64,000 nt of DNA from Escherichia phage MRostami-2023e. The translations under genes were made by a program, and so were the position numbers. The stretch is taken from sequence record OQ031495; one strand, written 5' to 3'. Every line of letters starts with the position of its first letter. The first letter of the stretch is position 1. Below the pieces are notes generated by a model. That model made no database searches and was not told where the DNA came from. It was given only the letters and a program-made list of their open reading frames with translations. Positions 3,978-20,958 of this stretch are shown in pieces.

Positions 3978-4252
3978 TGGCTNNNNNNNNNNNNNNNNNN
4001 NNNNNNNNNNNNNNNNNNNNNNNNNNNNNNNNNNNNNNNNNNNNNNNNNNNNNNNNNNNNNNNNNNNNNNNNNNNNNNNNNNNNNNNNNNNNNNNNNNNN
4101 NNNNNNNNNNNNNNNNNNNNNNNNNNNNNNNNNNNNNNNNNNNNNNNNNNNNNNNNNNNNNNNNNNNNNNNNNNNNNNNNNNNNATCAAAGAGTAGTTTA
4201 CTTCTCCTCTAGTTGTGTTACTATAGACCTGTCAACTAGAGGAGAAATCAAA

Positions 4253-5606: not shown

Positions 5607-6057
5607 AAACTATATCAAGGGCGATATTGTCGCCCTGTTTTCTAAAGGTAATAATATTGCTCATGGGTGTAATTGTTTTCATACAATGGGCGCCGGTGTA
5701 GCAGGCCAATTAGCAAAGGCTTATCCAAAAATTTTAGAAGCCGATAAACTTCAAACTGCATATGGAGACGAGTCTAAACTCGGGTCTTATTCGGTTTATG
5801 AAAAATATTTTAAGACCCATAAAGCTTATTGCTTTAATCTTTATACGCAGTTTGAGCCTGGACCTAATTTTGAGTACTCTGCTTTAATGAATTGTATAAT
5901 AGAATTAAATGAATTCGGAAAGAATAAGATAACAAAGCCTGTAATTTATATGCCAAGAATTGGTGCCGGTATTGGTGGTGGAAACTGGGATGTCATCGAA
6001 GAGATTTTAGATACGTATTCCACTAAACTAGAAATTGTGATTGTTGATTGGGAACCN
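5599..6057 (+). CDS. Macro-domain protein (TARG1/Poa1p-like), 3' end lost in masked run
   Basis: IAHGCNCFHTMGAGVAGQLAKAYP and MPRIGAGIGGGNWDV match macro-domain ADP-ribose-binding loops; start uncertain (GTG 5599 or TTG 5590). Confidence 0.55.
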
Positions 6058-6480
6058 NNNNNNNNNNNNNNNNNNNNNNNNNNNNNNNNNNNNNNNNNNN
6101 NNNNNNNNNNNNNNNNNNNNNNNNNNNNNNNNNNNNNNNNNNNNNNNNNNNNNNNNNNNNNNNNNNNNNNNNNNNNNNNNNNNNNNNNNNNNNNNNNNNN
6201 NNNNNNNNNNNNNNNNNNNNNNNNNNNNNNNNNNNNNNNNNNNNNNNNNNNNNNNNNNNNNNNNNNNNNNNNNNNNNNNNNNNNNNNNNNNNNNNNNNNN
6301 NNNNNNNNNNNNNNNNNNATGGACTGTTTTTTTTACTTTATGTAACGATGAAATGATATGTGATTTTGATTATTGGTGTTATTGCTATTGATACAATAAA
6401 GGATGTACAAATCATACAGGTGAAGGTTTCTATTCCGGGTTTCAACCGTATCCAGACTTTGTNNNNNNNNGTGAACCTAA

Positions 6481-6663
6481 ATGAAATTAACTAAAGAAGA
6501 GAAAGCTAAACTGTTCGAACTTATCCATGACCTATTGGACGAGCAAGCAGCCACCAATGCGTACGATGAATATGCTCCTTTAACAGATGAAGAATATCAA
6601 GCATTGATGGAATCATTTGACAGGAAAGAACAAGAACTCATTGACTACGTGAATTCACTATAA
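6481..6663 (+). CDS. Hypothetical acidic protein
   Basis: 60-aa ORF. Confidence 0.45.
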   Translation: MKLTKEEKAKLFELIHDLLDEQAATNAYDEYAPLTDEEYQALMESFDRKEQELIDYVNSL

Positions 6664-6672
6664 GGGACTCTT

Positions 6673-7254
6673 ATGGCTAGTTTAATTTTTACATATGCCG
6701 CTATGAATGCTGGTAAGTCTGCTTCATTACTTACTGCCGCACATAACTATAAAGAACGTGGCATGGGTGTATTAGTTCTTAAACCGGCTATTGATACTCG
6801 CGATTCAAAAGGTGAAATAGTCTCTCGTATTGGTATTCGTCAGGATGCCAATATAATTACAAAAGACATGGATATCTTTGAATTCTATAAATGGGCTGCA
6901 GCACAAAAGGATATTCACTGTGTATTTGTTGACGAAGCTCAGTTCTTAACTACTGAAAAGGTGTATCAACTTAGTCGTATTGTTGACGTATACAATGTGC
7001 CGGTAATGGCATATGGACTACGAACAGATTTTAAAGGTAATCTATTTGAAGGTTCTCAAGCATTAATGGCTATTGCCGATAAGCTTGTTGAACTTAAAGG
7101 TGTCTGTCATTGTGGTAAAAAGGCCACAATGGTAGCTAGAGTCACGGAAGACGGACTTCCAATTACAGATGGCAGTCAAATTGAAATTGGTGATACCGAT
7201 AGATATGTGTCATTATGCCGGAAGCATTGGAATGATTTGACAGGGTTGTTATAA
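6673..7254 (+). CDS. tk: Thymidine kinase
   Basis: MASLIFTYAAMNAGKSASLL...VFVDEAQF...CHCGKKA... near-identical to T4 Tk; P-loop and zinc-ribbon cysteines present. Confidence 0.92.
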   Translation: MASLIFTYAAMNAGKSASLLTAAHNYKERGMGVLVLKPAIDTRDSKGEIVSRIGIRQDANIITKDMDIFEFYKWAAAQKDIHCVFVDEAQFLTTEKVYQLSRIVDVYNVPVMAYGLRTDFKGNLFEGSQALMAIADKLVELKGVCHCGKKATMVARVTEDGLPITDGSQIEIGDTDRYVSLCRKHWNDLTGLL

Positions 7255-8190: not shown

Positions 8191-8571
8191 NNNNNNNNNN
8201 NNNNNNNNNNNNNNNNNNNNNNNNNNNNNNNNNNNNNNNNNNNNNNNNNNNNNNNNNNNNNNNNNNNNNNNNNNNNNNNNNNNNNNNNNNNNNNNNNNNN
8301 NNNNNNNNNNNNNNNNNNNNNNNNNNNNNNNNNNNNNNNNNNNNNNNNNNNNNNNNNNNNNNNNNNNNNNNNNNNNNNNNNNNNNNNNNNNNNNNNNNNN
8401 NNNNNNNNNNNNNNNNNNNNNNNNNNNNNNNNNNNNNNNNNNNNNNNNNNNNNNNNNNNNNNNNNNNNNNNNNNNNNNNNNNNNNNNNNNNNNNNNNNNN
8501 NNNNNNNNNNNNNNNNNNNNNNNNNNNNNNCAAGTTGAAGAACTTTATCGACATTTAAAACACAATCGGTA

Positions 8572-8601
8572 GTTTACATCTTGGTAGGATTATGTTATAG
8601 T
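8572..8601 (+). promoter_or_regulatory. Early promoter
   Basis: GTTTAC 8572-8577, about 18-bp spacer, TATAGT 8596-8601. Confidence 0.45.
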
Positions 8602-8736
8602 AGTCCTATCAAAACGAACGGAGACCAAAATGAAACTTTTGCTTATCGCTTATGTTGTAGTACAATATAATTATCCGATGTTTACTTATAACATGGTAAA
8701 CGGCATAGTGAATCTTATTGAAACGAGTATGGTAAA

Positions 8737-8916
8737 ATGACCCGTGAACAAGCTAATAAATTGATGGACCTTATCCGTGACTTACGTGAAGCCGATTCAG
8801 ATTTGAATGATGTAGCTTATCATGCGGTAAATGATAACGGAGATTTTTATGAAAATCAGGTTGACGCTTGCCAGAATGCTTTGGTGAATTTTGTTGAAAC
8901 TTTAATTGGTGAATAA
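8737..8916 (+). CDS. Hypothetical small protein
   Basis: 59-aa ORF MTREQANKLMDLIRDLREADSD...; not in the track (below 60 aa). Confidence 0.35.
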   Translation: MTREQANKLMDLIRDLREADSDLNDVAYHAVNDNGDFYENQVDACQNALVNFVETLIGE

Positions 8917-8917
8917 T

Positions 8918-9448
8918 ATGAAAACTGTAATTGAAACAACCGAGTTGTTTGGCGATTTATGTATCGAAAAACGTGGTTATGCTTACGTTCTGACACAAGA
9001 AGATGATGCTGTTACTATTCTTCCTATGGAACTGGACAAGATTTTGAAACTCAATCCGCCCGGCCATGCATCTGTAATTAACATTGATGAAGACCTTCAA
9101 GTTCGTTTTTATCACGGTCTTTATAGTGGGGTTAATATCGAAACAGAAGATGAATGCCTTTCTATCAATAATTGGAAAACATTCGTCACTAAGGTGAAAG
9201 AATTCATAGAATCTGAAACTGCCAAAAAGGCCAAACTTCAATGGGCTAAATGCCGTAATGCTTTTATTACAAATCAGGACCGCCCTGACTATACAACAGT
9301 CCTAGGCGTTAATCCTTCTTATGAAGACGGTGATGTCGTAGTTATTCGCCAAATTGATGACCTTCGTCAACATATCATTACATTAGACAAAGATGAGGCA
9401 GTTGCTCTTAAAGCTTATCTCGATTCTATTATCCCAACTTTGAAATAA
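8918..9448 (+). CDS. Hypothetical protein
   Basis: 176-aa ORF (MKTVIETTELFGD...); start right after upstream stop. Confidence 0.5.
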   Translation: MKTVIETTELFGDLCIEKRGYAYVLTQEDDAVTILPMELDKILKLNPPGHASVINIDEDLQVRFYHGLYSGVNIETEDECLSINNWKTFVTKVKEFIESETAKKAKLQWAKCRNAFITNQDRPDYTTVLGVNPSYEDGDVVVIRQIDDLRQHIITLDKDEAVALKAYLDSIIPTLK

Positions 9449-9457
9449 GGAATTATT

Positions 9458-9931
9458 ATGATTATCAATGAAAACTCTTGGCACTTTAAACTTTATGCAG
9501 CGTTCAATAGTACATGGAATCGCCCGAAAACATTATGTGCTTATTTTTGGAAAACGTTAATCCCAGTATTGGCTGTTTCAATTATTGGATTTGCGATTTT
9601 AGCAGCAGTCACAATTATTGGCCAGGAAATTTTAACTAGATTCTTTGTTTTTAGCAGTCTATGGACATTAGTTCCGGCCTCAATTGGCGTAGGCATTTTA
9701 ATGGTAGCAGTCATGGCTTTTATTTCTGTAGGGTTGGTAATTGGCCCGTCTTGGTTGTTAGACAAATATAACGACAGAAAATATTATAAAGAAATTGAGT
9801 TCATTGCACAAAACCAAGAACGAATTAAAAATGGACTTGAACCTATTGAACGTAAGAAATCATTAATAGGTGAATACCTTAAAGCTCGTAAAGAAAAAGT
9901 CTGTCCTACTCTTGAATATAAGGCTAAATGA
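9458..9931 (+). CDS. Hypothetical membrane protein
   Basis: Two long hydrophobic segments; SD AAGGAA upstream. Confidence 0.5.
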   Translation: MIINENSWHFKLYAAFNSTWNRPKTLCAYFWKTLIPVLAVSIIGFAILAAVTIIGQEILTRFFVFSSLWTLVPASIGVGILMVAVMAFISVGLVIGPSWLLDKYNDRKYYKEIEFIAQNQERIKNGLEPIERKKSLIGEYLKARKEKVCPTLEYKAK

Positions 9932-10917
9932 TGAAAACAATTATGAAAGGCTACTTTGGTAGTCACCTTTATGGAACGTCCACTCCTGAATCTGACGTCG
10001 ATTTTAAAGAAATTTATGTCCCTCATGCTCGTGATATCTTGACCGGTAACGTTAAAGAACACATGAGCAAGAACACGAATAACACATCTTCTAAGAACAC
10101 AAAAGACGACGTGGACCATGAGTTGTATAGTCTCAAATATTTCTTTAAACTAGCTGCGGATGGTGAAACTGTCGCATTAGATATGCTTCACACTCCACCA
10201 AGCCTAGTAGTTAAATCTGATTTGCCTGATGTATGGAAGTATATTCAAGATAACAGGTCTCGTTTCTATACCACTAACATGAAATCTTATTTAGGGTATG
10301 TCCGTAAGCAAGCTTCTAAATACGGTGTCAAGGGTTCTCGACTGGCTATTCTTCGACAAGCCCTTAAACGTTCTAATGAATGGGGACAATACTTTGATAA
10401 TGGTGCAGTAATTCGTTTATCACATATGAAGAATGTTCTGCCTGTAGGTGAATTTGCTTCGTGGGTTGAAACCGAAAACGAGAAAACAGGTAAGCAAACA
10501 TTCTATAATCTGTTGGACCGTAAATTCCAAGACACGTTAACCAATAAAGAGTTCAATGCCATCCTGGTTAAACTGGAAGAGAACTACGGTGAACGTGCTC
10601 GTAAGGCAGAAGCTAACGAAGGTATTGACTGGAAAGCATTGAGTCATGCGTGTCGTGGTGGACTTCAATTATTGGAAATTTACAAAACCGGCGACCTGGT
10701 TTACCCACTTCAGGATGCTCCATTTATTCTCGATGTTAAGCTTGGTAAACATACGTTTAAAACTGTACAAGAATTCCTAGAAGATATCGTTGACCAAGTT
10801 GAACATGCATCGGAACAAGCCGCTAAGAACGGTATGCAACAAAAAGTAGATATGAGTTTCTGGGATGATTTCCTTGAGCAAGTCTATCTCGAAAATCATA
10901 ATTCTTACTATAAATAA
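9928..10917 (+). CDS. Pol-beta-superfamily nucleotidyltransferase-like protein
   Basis: GSHLYGTSTPESDVDF fits the GS-x9-13-DxD nucleotidyltransferase signature; 329 aa. Confidence 0.5.
   Translation: MMKTIMKGYFGSHLYGTSTPESDVDFKEIYVPHARDILTGNVKEHMSKNTNNTSSKNTKDDVDHELYSLKYFFKLAADGETVALDMLHTPPSLVVKSDLPDVWKYIQDNRSRFYTTNMKSYLGYVRKQASKYGVKGSRLAILRQALKRSNEWGQYFDNGAVIRLSHMKNVLPVGEFASWVETENEKTGKQTFYNLLDRKFQDTLTNKEFNAILVKLEENYGERARKAEANEGIDWKALSHACRGGLQLLEIYKTGDLVYPLQDAPFILDVKLGKHTFKTVQEFLEDIVDQVEHASEQAAKNGMQQKVDMSFWDDFLEQVYLENHNSYYK
10909..10916 (+). promoter_or_regulatory. Candidate late promoter (TATAAATA)
   Basis: Exact TATAAATA overlapping the upstream stop, about 33 nt before the 10949 start. 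Confidence 0.35.
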
Positions 10918-10948
10918 ATAGATAAATAACCATTAACTTGAGGTAAAT

Positions 10949-11227
10949 ATGAAAAAATTAGTAATTGGTTTATTCGCAGTAATGATGGCATTCTCTGTTG
11001 GTGCTACCACGGGTGCAGCCAGCGGTGCAGGAGCTGGTGGTAACCAGTCTTCTGGGCCTTCCAATGGTTCGGTAAATGCATCACATTCTCAAGGTATTGA
11101 GAACATTAAATCAAGCTATATTAATAGCACGGCCGGACAAGCAACTGAAGCATGGTCAAAGGGTCGAGTAGTTACTCACTCCGTATTCTGTGATATGCCT
11201 AATTATGTTGCTAAGTGCGATAAGTAA
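10949..11227 (+). CDS. Secreted Gly/Ser-rich hypothetical protein
   Basis: Signal peptide MKKLVIGLFAVMMAFSVGA; SD GAGG upstream. Confidence 0.5.
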   Translation: MKKLVIGLFAVMMAFSVGATTGAASGAGAGGNQSSGPSNGSVNASHSQGIENIKSSYINSTAGQATEAWSKGRVVTHSVFCDMPNYVAKCDK

Positions 11228-11232
11228 ATGTG

Positions 11233-11251
11233 GGGACCTTCGGGTCCCTTT
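11233..11251 (+). terminator. UUCG-tetraloop hairpin (terminator-like)
   Basis: GGGACC ttcg GGTCCC followed by TTTAGGGGG; weak U-tract. Confidence 0.35.
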
Positions 11252-11279
11252 AGGGGGTTAAAATATTTTTAAAAAGTAG

Positions 11280-11310
11280 TGTACATGCTTTTAGGATATG
11301 TTATTATAGA
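11280..11310 (+). promoter_or_regulatory. Early promoter
   Basis: TGTACA 11280-11285 then TATTATAGA -10 region. Confidence 0.45.
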
Positions 11311-11345
11311 CCTATCGAAACGAAATGAGTAAATTGGAGAATAAA

Positions 11346-12326
11346 ATGTTCAACGTTCAAATCAAAAAAGGTATCTATCGTAATAACGAAATCTCTGGTT
11401 CTTATGTTGCCACAAAGACCTGGTTCCCAGCAAAGCTTAATCCTGAATGTTCCCACTTAGGTGACGGTAAAATTTTCGTTATGATTGATGGTTCTGAACG
11501 TGGAGTATGGGTCTTCAAATCAGACATCGTAATGGAAGGAGTTGAGACATCACCAGTTGCAGTTGTTGAAAGCACTGAAGATATGAAAACTCGTATCAAC
11601 AAACGCTTTAAAGTAATGAACATGATGACGAATGGCATTATCGATGGCAAAATTCGTTCACTCATTATTTCAGGTGCAGCCGGTATTGGTAAGACGTATT
11701 CTCTGGATAAAGCACTTAATAATGCTAATGATAATGGTTTCATCAAATACAAAAGCATTAATGGTAAAATCTCTGGTATTGGCCTTTACGAACAACTTTG
11801 GCTCAACCGTGATGCAGACAGCGTTCTCTTAATCGATGACGTTGACGTATTCTCAGATATGGACATCTTGAATCTTCTTAAAGCAGCATTAGATACTGGA
11901 GATAAACGCAAAGTTTGTTGGAGCACTGCGTCATCTTATCTCGATGATAAGGGTATTGATAAAGAATTTGAGTTTGAAGGTACTATCGTTTTCATTACAA
12001 ACGTTGATATCGATAAAGAGTTAGAACGCGGTTCGAAACTTGCTCCACACCTTCAAGCTTTAGTATCTCGCTCAGTGTATCTCGACCTTGGAGTACACTC
12101 TAATGAAGAGATTATGGTTCGAGTTGAAGATGTAATATTATCTACTGACATGATGCAGAAACGTGGTCTGACTGATGCAGAAACGTATAAAGCATTGTCC
12201 TGGATGAAGGCTAATGTATCTCGTCTTCGCAATGTATCATTACGTACCGCTCTTTATGTAGCAGATTTTATTTCAACTGATAAAGATGGTTGGGAGGAAA
12301 TCTCTGAAGTAACTTTACTGAAATAA
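11346..12326 (+). CDS. P-loop NTPase (AAA-like) with distinct N-terminal domain
   Basis: Walker A ISGAAGIGKT and Walker B VLLIDDVD; SD GGAGA before ATG 11346. Confidence 0.55.
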   Translation: MFNVQIKKGIYRNNEISGSYVATKTWFPAKLNPECSHLGDGKIFVMIDGSERGVWVFKSDIVMEGVETSPVAVVESTEDMKTRINKRFKVMNMMTNGIIDGKIRSLIISGAAGIGKTYSLDKALNNANDNGFIKYKSINGKISGIGLYEQLWLNRDADSVLLIDDVDVFSDMDILNLLKAALDTGDKRKVCWSTASSYLDDKGIDKEFEFEGTIVFITNVDIDKELERGSKLAPHLQALVSRSVYLDLGVHSNEEIMVRVEDVILSTDMMQKRGLTDAETYKALSWMKANVSRLRNVSLRTALYVADFISTDKDGWEEISEVTLLK

Positions 12327-12464
12327 GCTTATAGGAAGTTCTGAGGTAACAAAAGCCATAAAGATGAATAATCATATGGCTTACCTCAAAGAAGGACACC
12401 AGGAACCTACTGAGGGCATAGAAATATTTAAAAATAATGATGTACAAATCAAAGAGGATATGTT

Positions 12465-12752
12465 ATGGATTTTATGCAAAAAATTAAAGCCGCAGTCGAA
12501 CTCTATGCTCATCGTATGGTTAGTTCTACAATGCAATATAGCGAGGAGGTTCGCCAGGACTCTTCCTTGAAAGGAAAAACTAAAGCCTTAATTACCTTAG
12601 ACCGTTTGCAAAAGAATGCCATAGAGATGCTCCAGTACGACAAGGGTGTATATAAGAAAGAACTGGAAGAGAAACTTAAATCTGAAAAATTACAAAAAAT
12701 CCCGAAGTCTGTTTGGTTCAGTGGAAAAAATACCGAAAAAAGTTTCTTTTAG
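12465..12752 (+). CDS. Hypothetical protein
   Basis: 95-aa ORF; overlaps alternative ORF 12364-12570. Confidence 0.35.
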   Translation: MDFMQKIKAAVELYAHRMVSSTMQYSEEVRQDSSLKGKTKALITLDRLQKNAIEMLQYDKGVYKKELEEKLKSEKLQKIPKSVWFSGKNTEKSFF

Positions 12753-14451: not shown

Positions 14452-15387
14452 ATGGCTTTTATTACACGTAAAGAACTTATCAAAGAATTTACCTCGAACG
14501 CATATACTCCAGGACCTAATCCTATCCGTATGCCTGTAAAGACTCCTGAAGAGATTGAGGAAGTCTGTTCATATTATGGGATTACTTCTCGTAAGTTTAC
14601 TCAATTTGAATGCGTTACTAACACACCCGTTAAAGAGTTCATTAAAAATGGTGAGTTCAGCCGTTTATTAGCCAAACAGAAACTTCGTAATTTTTGTATT
14701 GGCGGTGAAGGACAATATTTCGCTAAGCAGTTCCGGAATAACCTTAACAATCTGATGGCCATTGCTTCTCGTATTCGTCCTCAAGCAATTAACATGAAAC
14801 ATTTGAAATATACTTACGATAAGTTGGAAATCATGGTTATCAGTGAGAATGAGTTCACTCTTACGTATAAACCTAAGAATGATAACGTTGCTCGTGTATT
14901 TCACCAAGCGTTGGAAGTTTTAGGTGATAATATCCACCAGATTAAAGCAATTTATTCACGTGAGCTTAATATTATCAACCCCATCAAGAATAAGGGTCAT
15001 ATTGCTATCCAGGCTCGTGTATCTATTGGTAAAAAGGTTCCTGCGCCATGGTGGCACAAAGACTCTGAATACTATCAAAATCTTAAAAAGGAAAATGCAT
15101 TGTTTGAAGCATCGCTTACTGGAACCCCAATTGAACAGGCCGAAGTCCTAAGTGCTTATTCTACTTCTNNNNNNNNNNNNNNNNNNNNNNNNNNNAAACT
15201 AAAAGTTTCTAATGACCTTCTTCCGGCCGAAGATTACCATTACAATCAAATCAAGGCCACTATGGACCAACTGTCTGTTGAACTTGACAAAGCACAAGCT
15301 AAGCTTCGTGATGCTCAAAGTGTTGTAACGAATCTCCAGTTGCAGTATTCTAAACTTTTTAACGCAATGAATGCATTAAAATCATAA
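14452..15387 (+). CDS. Hypothetical protein (contains a 27-nt masked run)
   Basis: 311-aa ORF with SD GAGGA upstream. Confidence 0.5.
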   Translation: MAFITRKELIKEFTSNAYTPGPNPIRMPVKTPEEIEEVCSYYGITSRKFTQFECVTNTPVKEFIKNGEFSRLLAKQKLRNFCIGGEGQYFAKQFRNNLNNLMAIASRIRPQAINMKHLKYTYDKLEIMVISENEFTLTYKPKNDNVARVFHQALEVLGDNIHQIKAIYSRELNIINPIKNKGHIAIQARVSIGKKVPAPWWHKDSEYYQNLKKENALFEASLTGTPIEQAEVLSAYSTSXXXXXXXXXKLKVSNDLLPAEDYHYNQIKATMDQLSVELDKAQAKLRDAQSVVTNLQLQYSKLFNAMNALKS

Positions 15388-18441: not shown

Positions 18442-18640
18442 NNNNNNNNNNNNNNNNNNNNNNNNNNNNNNNNNNNNNNNNNNNNNNNNNNNNNNNNNNN
18501 NNNNNNNNNNNNNNNNNNNNNNNNNNNNNNNNNNNNNNNNNNNNNNNNNNNNNNNNNNNNNNNNNNNNNNNNNNNNNNNNNNNNNNNNNNNNNNNNNNNN
18601 NNNNNNNNNNNNNNNNNNNNNNNNNNTTAAGTTAATAAAT

Positions 18641-19144: not shown

Positions 19145-20958
19145 AAATTGAAAAAGAAATTGAAGGATTAATTCATAAAACTAATAAAGACCTTTTAAAC
19201 GAGAATGCTAATAAAGATTCTCGTGTTTTTCCAACTCAACGGGACCTTATGGCTGGTATTGTGTCTAAGCACATTGCCAAAAATATGGTCCCGTCTTTTA
19301 TTATGAATGCGCATGAAAGCGGAATCATTCACATGCATGATATTGATTATTCTCCTGCTCTTCCATTTACTAATTGCTGTTTAGTCGATTTAAAGGGGAT
19401 GCTTGAGAATGGATTTAAATTAGGCAATGCTCAAATTGAAACGCCTAAATCTATTGGCGTTGCTACTGCAATTATGGCACAAATTACCGCACAAGTTGCT
19501 TCACACCAATATGGCGGAACTACATTTGCGAATGTCGATAAAGTTCTTTCTCCTTATGTTAAACGCACATACGCTAAACATATTGAGGACGCAGAAAAAT
19601 GGCAAATCGCTGATGCGTTGAATTATGCCCAATCTAAAACAGAAAAAGACGTATACGATGCATTCCAAGCTTATGAATATGAAGTAAATACTCTCTTTAG
19701 TTCAAACGGACAGACTCCTTTTGTAACAATTACATTTGGTACAGGAACCGACTGGACTGAACGAATGATTCAGAAAGCAATTCTTAAAAACCGCATTAAA
19801 GGCCTTGGTCGTGATGGAATAACTCCTATTTTCCCTAAGCTTGTTATGTTCGTTGAAGAAGGTGTTAATCTTTATAAAGACGATCCGAACTATGATATTA
19901 AGCAGCTTGCTTTAGAATGTGCAAGCAAAAGAATGTATCCTGACATCATTTCGGCTAAGAACAATAAAGCTATCACCGGCTCATCTATTCCTGTTTCTCC
20001 AATGGGTTGCCGTAGTTTCTTGAGCGTATGGAAAGATTCAACTGGCAATGAAATTCTTGATGGACGCAATAATCTTGGCGTTGTAACACTGAATCTTCCT
20101 CGTATTGCGTTAGATTCTTATATTGGAACACAATTCAATGAACAGAAATTTGCCGAATTGTTCAATGAACGAATGGACCTGTGTTTTGAAGCTTTGATGT
20201 GTAGAATTAGTTCCTTAAAAGGAGTTAAAGCGACTGTTGCTCCTATTCTTTACCAAGAAGGTGCATTTGGGGTTCGTCTTAAACCTGACGACGATATAAT
20301 TGAGTTATTTAAAAACGGTAGAAGTTCAGTGTCTTTAGGATACATCGGTATTCATGAATTGAATATTCTTGTCGGCCGTGATATTGGACAAGAAATTTTA
20401 ACTAAAATGAATGCTCATCTTAAACAGTGGACTGAAAGAACCGGTTTTGCTTTTAGCTTGTATTCTACTCCTGCTGAAAACCTGTGCTATCGCTTCTGTA
20501 AACTTGATACTGAAAAATATGGAAGTGTAAAAGATGTTACTGATAAAGGCTGGTACACTAACAGTTTCCATGTTTCAGTAGAAGAAAATATTACTCCGTT
20601 TGAAAAGATTTATCGCGAAGCCCCATATCATTTCATTTCGNNNNNNNNNNNNNNNNNNNNNNNNNNNNNNNNNNNNNNNNNNNNNNNNNNNNNNNNNNNN
20701 NNNNNNNNNNNNNNNNNNNNNNNNNNNNNNNNNNNNNNNNNNNNNNNNNNNNNNNNNNNNNNNNNNNNNNNNNNNNNNNNNNNNNNNNNNNNNNNNNNNN
20801 NNNNNNNNNNNNNATTTGTTTGTTCTATGTGTGGAGAAACTGATCCTAAAAAGATGAACACAATAAGAAGAACGTGTGGTTATCTTGGAAACCCGAACGA
20901 ACGCGGATTTAATCTAGGCAAAAATAAAGAAATCATGCATAGGGTTAAACACCAATGA
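19141..20958 (+). CDS. nrdD: Anaerobic ribonucleoside-triphosphate reductase (class III; 173 nt masked inside)
   Basis: 605 aa; NCCLVDLKGML and C-terminal RRTCGYLG glycyl-radical motif with zinc-ribbon cysteines. Confidence 0.9.
   Translation: MKIEKEIEGLIHKTNKDLLNENANKDSRVFPTQRDLMAGIVSKHIAKNMVPSFIMNAHESGIIHMHDIDYSPALPFTNCCLVDLKGMLENGFKLGNAQIETPKSIGVATAIMAQITAQVASHQYGGTTFANVDKVLSPYVKRTYAKHIEDAEKWQIADALNYAQSKTEKDVYDAFQAYEYEVNTLFSSNGQTPFVTITFGTGTDWTERMIQKAILKNRIKGLGRDGITPIFPKLVMFVEEGVNLYKDDPNYDIKQLALECASKRMYPDIISAKNNKAITGSSIPVSPMGCRSFLSVWKDSTGNEILDGRNNLGVVTLNLPRIALDSYIGTQFNEQKFAELFNERMDLCFEALMCRISSLKGVKATVAPILYQEGAFGVRLKPDDDIIELFKNGRSSVSLGYIGIHELNILVGRDIGQEILTKMNAHLKQWTERTGFAFSLYSTPAENLCYRFCKLDTEKYGSVKDVTDKGWYTNSFHVSVEENITPFEKIYREAPYHFISXXXXXXXXXXXXXXXXXXXXXXXXXXXXXXXXXXXXXXXXXXXXXXXXXXXXXXXXXXFVCSMCGETDPKKMNTIRRTCGYLGNPNERGFNLGKNKEIMHRVKHQ

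Follow-up and report, generated by a model that had tools for sequence, protein, structure and literature searches.

The window analysed here, a 64-kb stretch (64,000 nucleotides) of Escherichia phage MRostami-2023e (OQ031495), carries at positions 9928-10917 on the + strand an ORF of 329 aa, complete from its ATG to a TAA stop, as shown by the ORF list and the sequence itself. A 328-aa form, the one used by most database entries, would start at a second in-frame ATG (9931), and the stop codon of the upstream ORF overlaps the start of the gene in an ATGA at 9928-9931. The phage is T4-type, of the RB69/PhAPEC2 kind (RB69-like, Mosigvirus); the nearest complete phage genome, that of Escherichia phage vB_EQ1, is 99.9% identical to the window over 3.5 kb, and many other phages reach about 98%. 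The T4-like gene order tk - rI - mobD.1 - nrdC.11 - nrdC.10 is kept. Synteny with T4 places tk at 6673-7254, with rI.1 and rI next in order, and mobD.1/y05I at 8906-9448, while the AAA ATPase gene nrdC.10 lies downstream of the 329-aa ORF at 11325-12326 and is followed by nrdC.9, nrdC.8 and onwards. T4 NrdC.11 (AAD42629; an 'uncharacterised 38.9 kDa protein', COG3541), which likewise lies downstream of tk and rI, in the interval from mobD.1 to nrdC.10, shares 78% identity with the window protein over its full length, with an eight-residue length difference within the insertion region described below. The immediate surroundings differ, the gene directly upstream being the HNH homing endonuclease gene mobD in T4 and the gene for a 157-aa membrane protein in the window, where nrdC.11 is moreover followed by a 92-aa secreted-protein ORF that is absent from T4. 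A promoter and terminator scan of 8500-12600 gave sites no more numerous than in shuffled sequence, and we therefore make no claim on transcription units.

The protein matches the Pfam RlaP profile (PF10127) with E=8.4e-13 and 49 bits against a gathering cut-off of 23, residues 7-152 aligning to profile positions 23-148 of 249, and it matches PHROG 388, 'nucleotidyltransferase', over its full length (E=6.6e-126). Identity, synteny and these two profiles identify the gene, with practically no room for doubt, as the orthologue of T4 nrdC.11 and its product as a long-form Pol-beta nucleotidyltransferase of the RlaP family (PF10127). Such a Pol-beta-type enzyme is what the sequence-only reading had proposed, and the profile matches, together with the conserved active-site residues, uphold it. 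Proteins 100% identical to that of the window are already deposited in public databases, and nrdC.11 orthologues were assigned to the COG3541 nucleotidyltransferases in a 2006 publication. Many records wrongly name the nrdC.11-type gene 'thioredoxin', a name carried over from the nrdC gene. A tblastn search retrieved 1528 phage records with an NrdC.11-type gene, 1450 of them at a coverage of at least 80%; most of these phages belong to the Straboviridae and infect Escherichia, Klebsiella, Shigella, Aeromonas, Acinetobacter and Vibrio. By comparison, a short RlaP occurs in only 81 phage records, which come largely from jumbo phages and of which none is visibly T4-like. Searched exhaustively with HMMER, 1.84 billion cluster representatives yielded 3214 clusters at E<=1e-3, 738 of them at E<=1e-30.

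The active-site segment GSHLYGTSTPESDVDF (residues 11-26; 9958-10005, + strand), delineated by sequence and conservation, consists of a G11-S12 turn, ten residues, and D23-x-D25, which would provide the first two catalytic aspartates. We assessed conservation in two alignments of full-length, diverse representatives at 34-56% identity, one of 54 and one of 94 sequences. G11, S12, S22, D23, D25, N57, Y132, K236, R243 and G273 are invariant in both, and further positions, D61, D85, R223 and H240 among them, reach 90% conservation or more. Conservation of the active site had been set beforehand as the refuting test for the nucleotidyltransferase assignment, and G11, S12, D23 and D25 are unchanged throughout the 54 and the 94 homologues. 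The GS-x10-DxD motif and the 329-aa ORF are real; the bare GS-x9-13-DxD pattern occurs five times in the six-frame translation of the 64-kb window and is for this reason not diagnostic, its significance coming from the profile matches and the conservation. Among the 94 diverse homologues, 93 individually match PF10127. Some variation is seen in bacteria: GA replaces GS in about 20 of 80 homologues, with the aspartates retained, and in one of them (L018) an Asn replaces the first Asp. A further segment, D61-V-D63-H-E65 (10108-10122, + strand), defined by conservation and hhalign, lies at the start of the strand formed by residues 62-68. D63 is invariant in the 54-sequence alignment, at least 90% conserved in the 94-sequence alignment, and is placed by hhalign opposite an invariant Asp of canonical short RlaPs, in 'LDxNGWD'; it is presumably the third catalytic carboxylate.

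An AlphaFold2 model built from the 94-sequence alignment (pLDDT 93.3, pTM 0.84), for which a single-sequence model with pLDDT 41 was set aside, predicts a two-domain fold, nucleotidyltransferase plus helical, that carries a 100-residue insertion. The N-terminal Pol-beta-type domain (residues 1-131; 9928-10320, + strand) is supported by the Pfam match, hhalign and the modelled strands. It is alpha/beta in the model, with strands 3-10, 24-31, 45-49 and 62-68 and flanking helices. The Pol-beta fold is characterised by an hG[GS] turn with [DE]x[DE] on the strand that follows, and this arrangement is present in the window protein, where the model has strand 3-10, helix 12-15 and strand 24-31. The insertion module (residues 132-233; 10321-10626, + strand), delineated from the alignment with RB49-type orthologues and the modelled secondary structure, is predicted to form a helix, a three-stranded beta-meander (177-201) and a long helix with the conserved Y220-G221-x-R223; Y132, G136, Y220, G221 and R223 of this segment are conserved among long forms. 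The C-terminal helical domain (residues 234-329; 10627-10914, + strand) contains the motif D234-W-K236-x3-H240-x2-R243 and appears in the model as a helical bundle (235-328). This domain is typical of the RlaP family, so that the earlier statement of 'no other recognisable domain' in the protein has to be abandoned.

The comparison with canonical short RlaPs was carried out with a set of ten, 252-277 aa long, which match PF10127 full length at E=1e-62 to 1e-78. Profile-profile comparison (hhalign) aligned residues 4-130 of the window protein with this set at a probability of 94% (E=9.5e-8), at about 14% identity over 119 aligned columns. The homologous nucleotidyltransferase domain, the G-S turn and the three aspartates are shared, as is the architecture of PfRlaP and PaRlaP, a nucleotidyltransferase domain followed by a C-terminal helical domain. 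Short RlaPs measure about 250-275 aa, whereas the window protein has the 100-residue insertion and a divergent C-terminal domain. Neither the insertion nor the C-terminal part aligned significantly with short RlaPs in direct hhalign comparisons, the best local match of the latter being KALSHACR with KRYCYALR (E=0.4); a helix motif K-x3-[H/Y]-x2-R is common to NrdC.11 and short RlaPs. A natural bridge between NrdC.11 and canonical RlaP is provided by the insertion-less RB49-type NrdC.11. For example, the orthologue of phage kaaroe (RB49-type, Krischvirus; QHR66112, 232 aa) is 43% identical to residues 2-131 and 53% identical to residues 234-321 of the window protein, lacks exactly residues 132-233 and otherwise has the same motifs. 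It matches PF10127 at profile positions 24-207 of 249, which leads us to describe NrdC.11 as an RlaP whose nucleotidyltransferase and helical domains are split by a 100-residue insertion. The family-type C-terminal helical domain of the window protein is accordingly supported via this insertion-less orthologue, the direct comparison giving the E=0.4 mentioned above.

The phage gene context, examined in the window and in 79 viral loci, gives a weak local signal for RNA repair. The window encodes no Rnl1, Rnl2 or PseT, and in T4-like phages generally no RNA ligase or kinase gene adjoins nrdC.11; among the 79 loci, only 4 have Rnl1 or PseT within 10 kb. In the genome of vB_EQ1, polynucleotide kinase, RNA ligase 1 and RNA ligase 2 are encoded 50-85 kb away, and T4 likewise has them. 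We discarded a general association with tRNA genes, as the window has none and only 9 of the 79 viral loci have any within 10 kb. Individual cases of proximity are found: one roseophage homologue lies inside a tRNA/tmRNA cluster, one Ochrobactrum phage homologue is near a Ro60-like gene, and in Acinetobacter T4-like phages the nrdC.11-type gene has 5-19 tRNA genes within 10 kb. A functional link to the AAA ATPase NrdC.10 was also rejected, as its gene follows in only 34 of the 79 viral loci and turns up in unrelated phages too; NrdC.10 never adjoins the bacterial homologues of NrdC.11. Two metagenomic contigs that carry distant homologues yielded no information, owing to their short length or poor annotation.

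The neighbourhoods of the NrdC.11 clade in Bacteria and Archaea were scanned in one genome per prokaryotic species, which gave 80 loci with full-length homologues at 33-52% identity, by ORF calling, clustering of neighbours, Pfam searches on cluster representatives and a tblastn re-screen. Many of these loci lie on long chromosomal contigs of Desulfobacterales, Nitrospirota and Alphaproteobacteria. RNA-repair genes are present within 10 kb in 32 of the 80 bacterial or archaeal loci, and the other 48 have no RNA-repair neighbour within that distance. The most frequent partner is a short RlaP, found by the tblastn screen within 10 kb in 23 of the 80 loci. In 21 loci (a Nitrosospira locus, L032, included, in which the short copy was merged into the match interval) it follows on the same strand at a distance of 3-280 bp, and it is directly downstream in 19 of the 70 loci having at least 900 bp of downstream sequence. 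Within the same 10 kb, RtcB was found in 8/80 loci, a bacterial Pnkp (kinase-phosphatase-ligase) in 7/80, Hen1 in 6/80, Ro60/TROVE and T4-type Pnkp in 3/80 each, and an Rnl1-type ligase in 1/80. Frequencies of 8-10% of loci for repair genes within 10 kb are likely to be far above chance, for which we expect roughly 0.5%, an estimate rather than a computed control, because each repair gene occurs at most once or twice per genome. The Nitrosospira locus has the order Ro60 - RtcB - RtcA - long RlaP - short RlaP - Hen1 - AAA_5 ATPase - ... - Pnkp, and a second locus (L012) the order long RlaP - NT5C-like - T4-type Pnkp - ... - Rnl1-type ligase. The NrdC.11-type clade is thus linked to RNA healing and sealing genes, and the short RlaP and NrdC.11 clades are alike in their association with RNA-ligase and repair operons, the kind of association from which the family takes its name.

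The biochemistry of the family comes from a December 2025 preprint (PMC12776372), in which activity was demonstrated solely for short bacterial RlaPs, the PfRlaP and PaRlaP of Pseudomonas RtcB operons. These enzymes label RNA only, leaving DNA and protein unlabelled, and extend RNA 3'-OH ends by one or two NMPs (or dNMPs), with a preference for Mn2+ or Co2+ (PMC12776372). Their preferred substrate is the 5' half of a cleaved-tRNA mimic, full-length tRNAs and the 3' ends of single-stranded RNA are labelled as well, and RlaP raises the aminoacylation of repaired tRNA missing one anticodon-loop nucleotide (PMC12776372). The crystal structure of PfRlaP has a nucleotidyltransferase domain and a helical domain, three conserved aspartates and a basic cleft (PMC12776372). 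The same authors named T4 NrdC.11 an RlaP, in cluster 5 of their similarity network and 'of unknown function', and concede that random nucleotide addition gives the correct base in only a fraction of molecules (PMC12776372). The 'unknown target' assigned to the window enzyme at first has therefore given way to a more specific expectation, the protein being the orthologue of T4 NrdC.11 in a family whose bacterial members act on RNA 3'-OH ends (PMC12776372).

Membership in the RlaP family, the conserved catalytic residues, the biochemistry of the family and the neighbourhoods of the clade all support a role in RNA repair. By analogy with the assayed relatives, the window enzyme probably adds nucleotides to RNA 3' ends. 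As inferred by homology to the Pseudomonas RlaPs, it would use NTPs and a divalent metal (Mn2+ being preferred in the assayed enzymes) to place one or two nucleotides, untemplated, onto a broken RNA 3'-OH. It may in this way put back a nucleotide that a cleaved tRNA has lost, such as the wobble base cut out by RloC-type anticodon nucleases, after which the phage Pnkp and RNA ligase 1, whose genes lie elsewhere in the genome, would seal a functional tRNA; we give this gap-filling role of the window enzyme slightly less than an even chance. That RlaP could refill RloC-excised nucleotides before ligation is an idea that is credited to Burroughs & Aravind 2016, the paper in which RlaP was named, and repeated for jumbo phages. 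nrdC.11 would then be a counter-defence accessory, dispensable in ordinary laboratory hosts, which fits the viability of a T4 deletion spanning nrdC.11 to mobD.3. Against this reading count the Pfam match confined to the N-terminal half of the profile, the C-terminal comparison with short RlaPs at E=0.4, the lack of RNA ligase or kinase genes beside the phage gene, the 48 prokaryotic loci with no repair neighbour and the limited share of correct bases to be expected from random addition. Taken as a whole, the explanation of the NrdC.11-type RlaP as an accessory tRNA-repair enzyme is the one that we favour, with reasonable though limited confidence.

Three other explanations were weighed. NrdC.11 might act at the acceptor 3'-CCA end of tRNAs, in the repair of trimmed CCA or in the maturation of phage tRNAs, and not at anticodon-loop gaps. 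This would be a variant of the same nucleotide-adding chemistry, and it agrees with the labelling of full-length tRNAs and single-stranded RNA 3' ends by the assayed RlaPs, with the one phage homologue in a tRNA/tmRNA cluster and with the 5-19 tRNA genes near the gene in Acinetobacter T4-like phages. Against this, T4 tRNAs in which CCA is not encoded rely on the cca enzyme of the host. The profile of CCA-adding enzymes and poly(A) polymerases (PF01743) gave no Pfam match at E<=1, and CCA-adding enzymes are not among the top fold matches, which include only distant Cid1/CutA folds at a probability of at most 0.06. Moreover, the scarcity of tRNA genes in the window and in viral loci described above argues against such a general role, and the bacterial neighbours are end-healing and sealing enzymes for internal breaks, making an action at the acceptor end unlikely. 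A modification of a host factor or toxin by nucleotidylylation of a protein or small molecule, in the style of kanamycin and lincosamide nucleotidyltransferases or of the MNT antitoxin, is suggested by a weak fold similarity to KNTase, MNT and DrrA. For example, the best Foldseek match in the PDB is the ANT(4') kanamycin nucleotidyltransferase (1kny; E=2.8e-3), which likewise has a nucleotidyltransferase domain followed by a helical bundle, but differs in acting on a small-molecule substrate and in having no sequence-family relationship to the window protein (TM-score 0.30, 8% identity). The matches of this kind are all weak, with TM about 0.3 and 8-11% identity, and no close structural or sequence similarity of the window protein to antibiotic nucleotidyltransferases (KNTase/ANT(4'), LinB) was found. 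The minimal nucleotidyltransferase profiles also remain below their cut-offs (PF01909 with 13.3 against 21 bits, the NCBIfam MntA profile NF047752 with 12.9 against 60), and no HEPN toxin partner is adjacent to nrdC.11 in the window, the neighbours being the membrane protein and the small secreted protein. Since the protein belongs to the RlaP family, whose assayed members left E. coli proteins unlabelled (PMC12776372), we regard a protein or small-molecule target as quite unlikely.

The third explanation concerns signalling nucleotides, which NrdC.11 could make or intercept as a cyclic nucleotide or oligonucleotide synthase, or as a phage copy of a HalB-like oligo-dA synthase by which a Hailong-type defence would be held inactive; the sequence-only reading had likewise considered cyclic-nucleotide synthesis and interference with nucleotide signalling. 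HalB of the Hailong system (PDB 9dbh) is 16% identical to the window protein and undetectable by sequence, including with the 94-sequence profile. It makes oligodeoxyadenylate and works with the HalA channel, and no HalA-like partner lies beside the window gene. Searches of the PDB by sequence, both with the window protein and with that profile, found nothing credible in a copy that does not contain the PfRlaP structure, and HalB is probably just the nearest relative deposited there. No Pfam match to CD-NTase or cGAS was obtained, PADLOC gave no match, and CD-NTases and cGAS are absent among the top PDB fold matches of the window protein. The HMM and structure searches that had been suggested as a check thus recovered a nucleotidyltransferase family, PF10127 RlaP, but no cyclic-nucleotide synthase. 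Furthermore, the RlaPs that have been assayed lengthen RNA by no more than 1-2 nt and do not accept DNA, and the neighbours of the homologues are RNA-repair genes, not defence effectors. A signalling function is consequently very improbable, and this part of the initial proposal is not retained.

Coming back to tRNA repair, the tandem of long and short RlaPs in Bacteria allows a more specific and rather speculative proposal, which we hold to be doubtful: the long RlaP would be the missing third enzyme of T4-type tRNA repair, and its residues 132-233 would select the substrate or the nucleotide. Bacteria would have an obligate pair of the long form and the short RlaP encoded directly after it, working as a heteromer or in two steps, of which the T4-like phages would have kept the long member only. 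The segment 132-233, the proposed selection module, is absent from RB49-type orthologues and canonical RlaPs.

Since the nrdC.11 gene, the RlaP family and the functional hypothesis are all previously present in the literature and databases, we count the finding as already known; the delineation of residues 132-233 through the natural deletion of RB49-type phages, the frequent tandem of long and short RlaPs in Bacteria and the neighbourhood statistics for the NrdC.11 clade go slightly beyond the literature that we found. [quoted passage not shown] Should the phage enzyme restore nucleotides lost from cleaved tRNAs, the classic T4 heal-and-seal pathway of Pnkp plus Rnl1 would gain a third step, and there would be an answer to whether this excision truly defeats phage tRNA repair, for a gene that is carried by about 1500 sequenced phages.

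The nrdC.11 gene (9928-10917, + strand) is clear of all eight N runs in the window, which total 1637 bases (1680-2119, 3983-4184, 6057-6318, 6463-6470, 8191-8530, 15169-15195, 18442-18626 and 20641-20813) and interrupt it such that ORFs spanning them are translated as X. Its flanks differ on both sides from those in T4. Directly upstream, T4 carries the HNH homing endonuclease MobD, whereas the window carries a gene for a 157-aa multi-pass membrane protein (9458-9931, + strand, PHROG 944), with which the start of nrdC.11 shares an ATGA overlap. Downstream, only a 115-bp gap separates nrdC.11 from nrdC.10 in T4, whereas in the window this interval holds a gene coding for a 92-aa signal-peptide protein (10949-11227, + strand, PHROG 2243) and, after it, a terminator-like hairpin (11243-11259).

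The NrdC.10 orthologue (11325-12326, + strand, PHROG 1250) is a P-loop/AAA ATPase of 333 aa, for which Pfam returned only weak matches (AAA_22, AAA_16 and nSTAND3). Its gene follows nrdC.11 in 34 of the 79 viral loci. Vibrio siphophages, jumbo phages and a Klebsiella phage of 51 kb carry it as well, and none of the bacterial NrdC.11 homologues has an adjoining NrdC.10. Database names for NrdC.10 are frequently wrong, for example “thioredoxin” or “clamp loader”. The former is attached to many orthologues of both nrdC.11 and nrdC.10 in GenBank and UniRef and, since neither protein contains a thioredoxin domain, looks like an error spread from the nrdC.N locus names.

The RB49-type NrdC.11 of Escherichia phage kaaroe (Krischvirus RB49; L169:1504-2202) is only 232 aa long and lacks, with respect to the window protein, exactly residues 132-233, and is thus a natural variant without the insertion module. 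Its match to the Pfam RlaP model reaches much further towards the C-terminus. The homologue of Bacteriophage DSS3_MAL1 (30% identity, L003:6001-6972) is located mid-way in a large tRNA gene cluster that includes a tmRNA gene, and that of Ochrobactrum phage vB_OspM_OC (27% identity) adjoins a MazG-like gene, with a Ro60-related gene some 5 kb away (L004:1-1267 / 6004-6906). In vB_EQ1, the complete phage genome nearest to the window, the annotation divides RNA ligase 2 (rnlB) into two separate CDS (L089:8206-9205, record positions 64205-65204); a frameshift or an error in sequencing could account for the split, or the gene could be a pseudogene.

Among the bacterial homologues, a single one (L018:10001-10930) has the first catalytic Asp replaced by Asn (SNKD) and may be inactive. 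G-A replaces the G-S preceding the DxD motif in around 20 Desulfobacterales/Nitrospirota loci (e.g. L026, L027 and L031). An arrangement not mentioned in the RlaP preprint (PMC12776372) was identified in 21 of the 80 bacterial loci, where a canonical short RlaP gene lies 3-280 bp downstream of the long one on the same strand (L013, L017, L021, L029, L032, L033, L041, L044, L051, L052, L054, L058, L061, L066, L069, L071, L076, L078, L079, L082 and L085). The short proteins are 252-277 aa long and match PF10127 over their full length. Both the long and the short RlaP of these loci appear to retain the catalytic residues, and the tandem arrangement suggests a two-enzyme pair.
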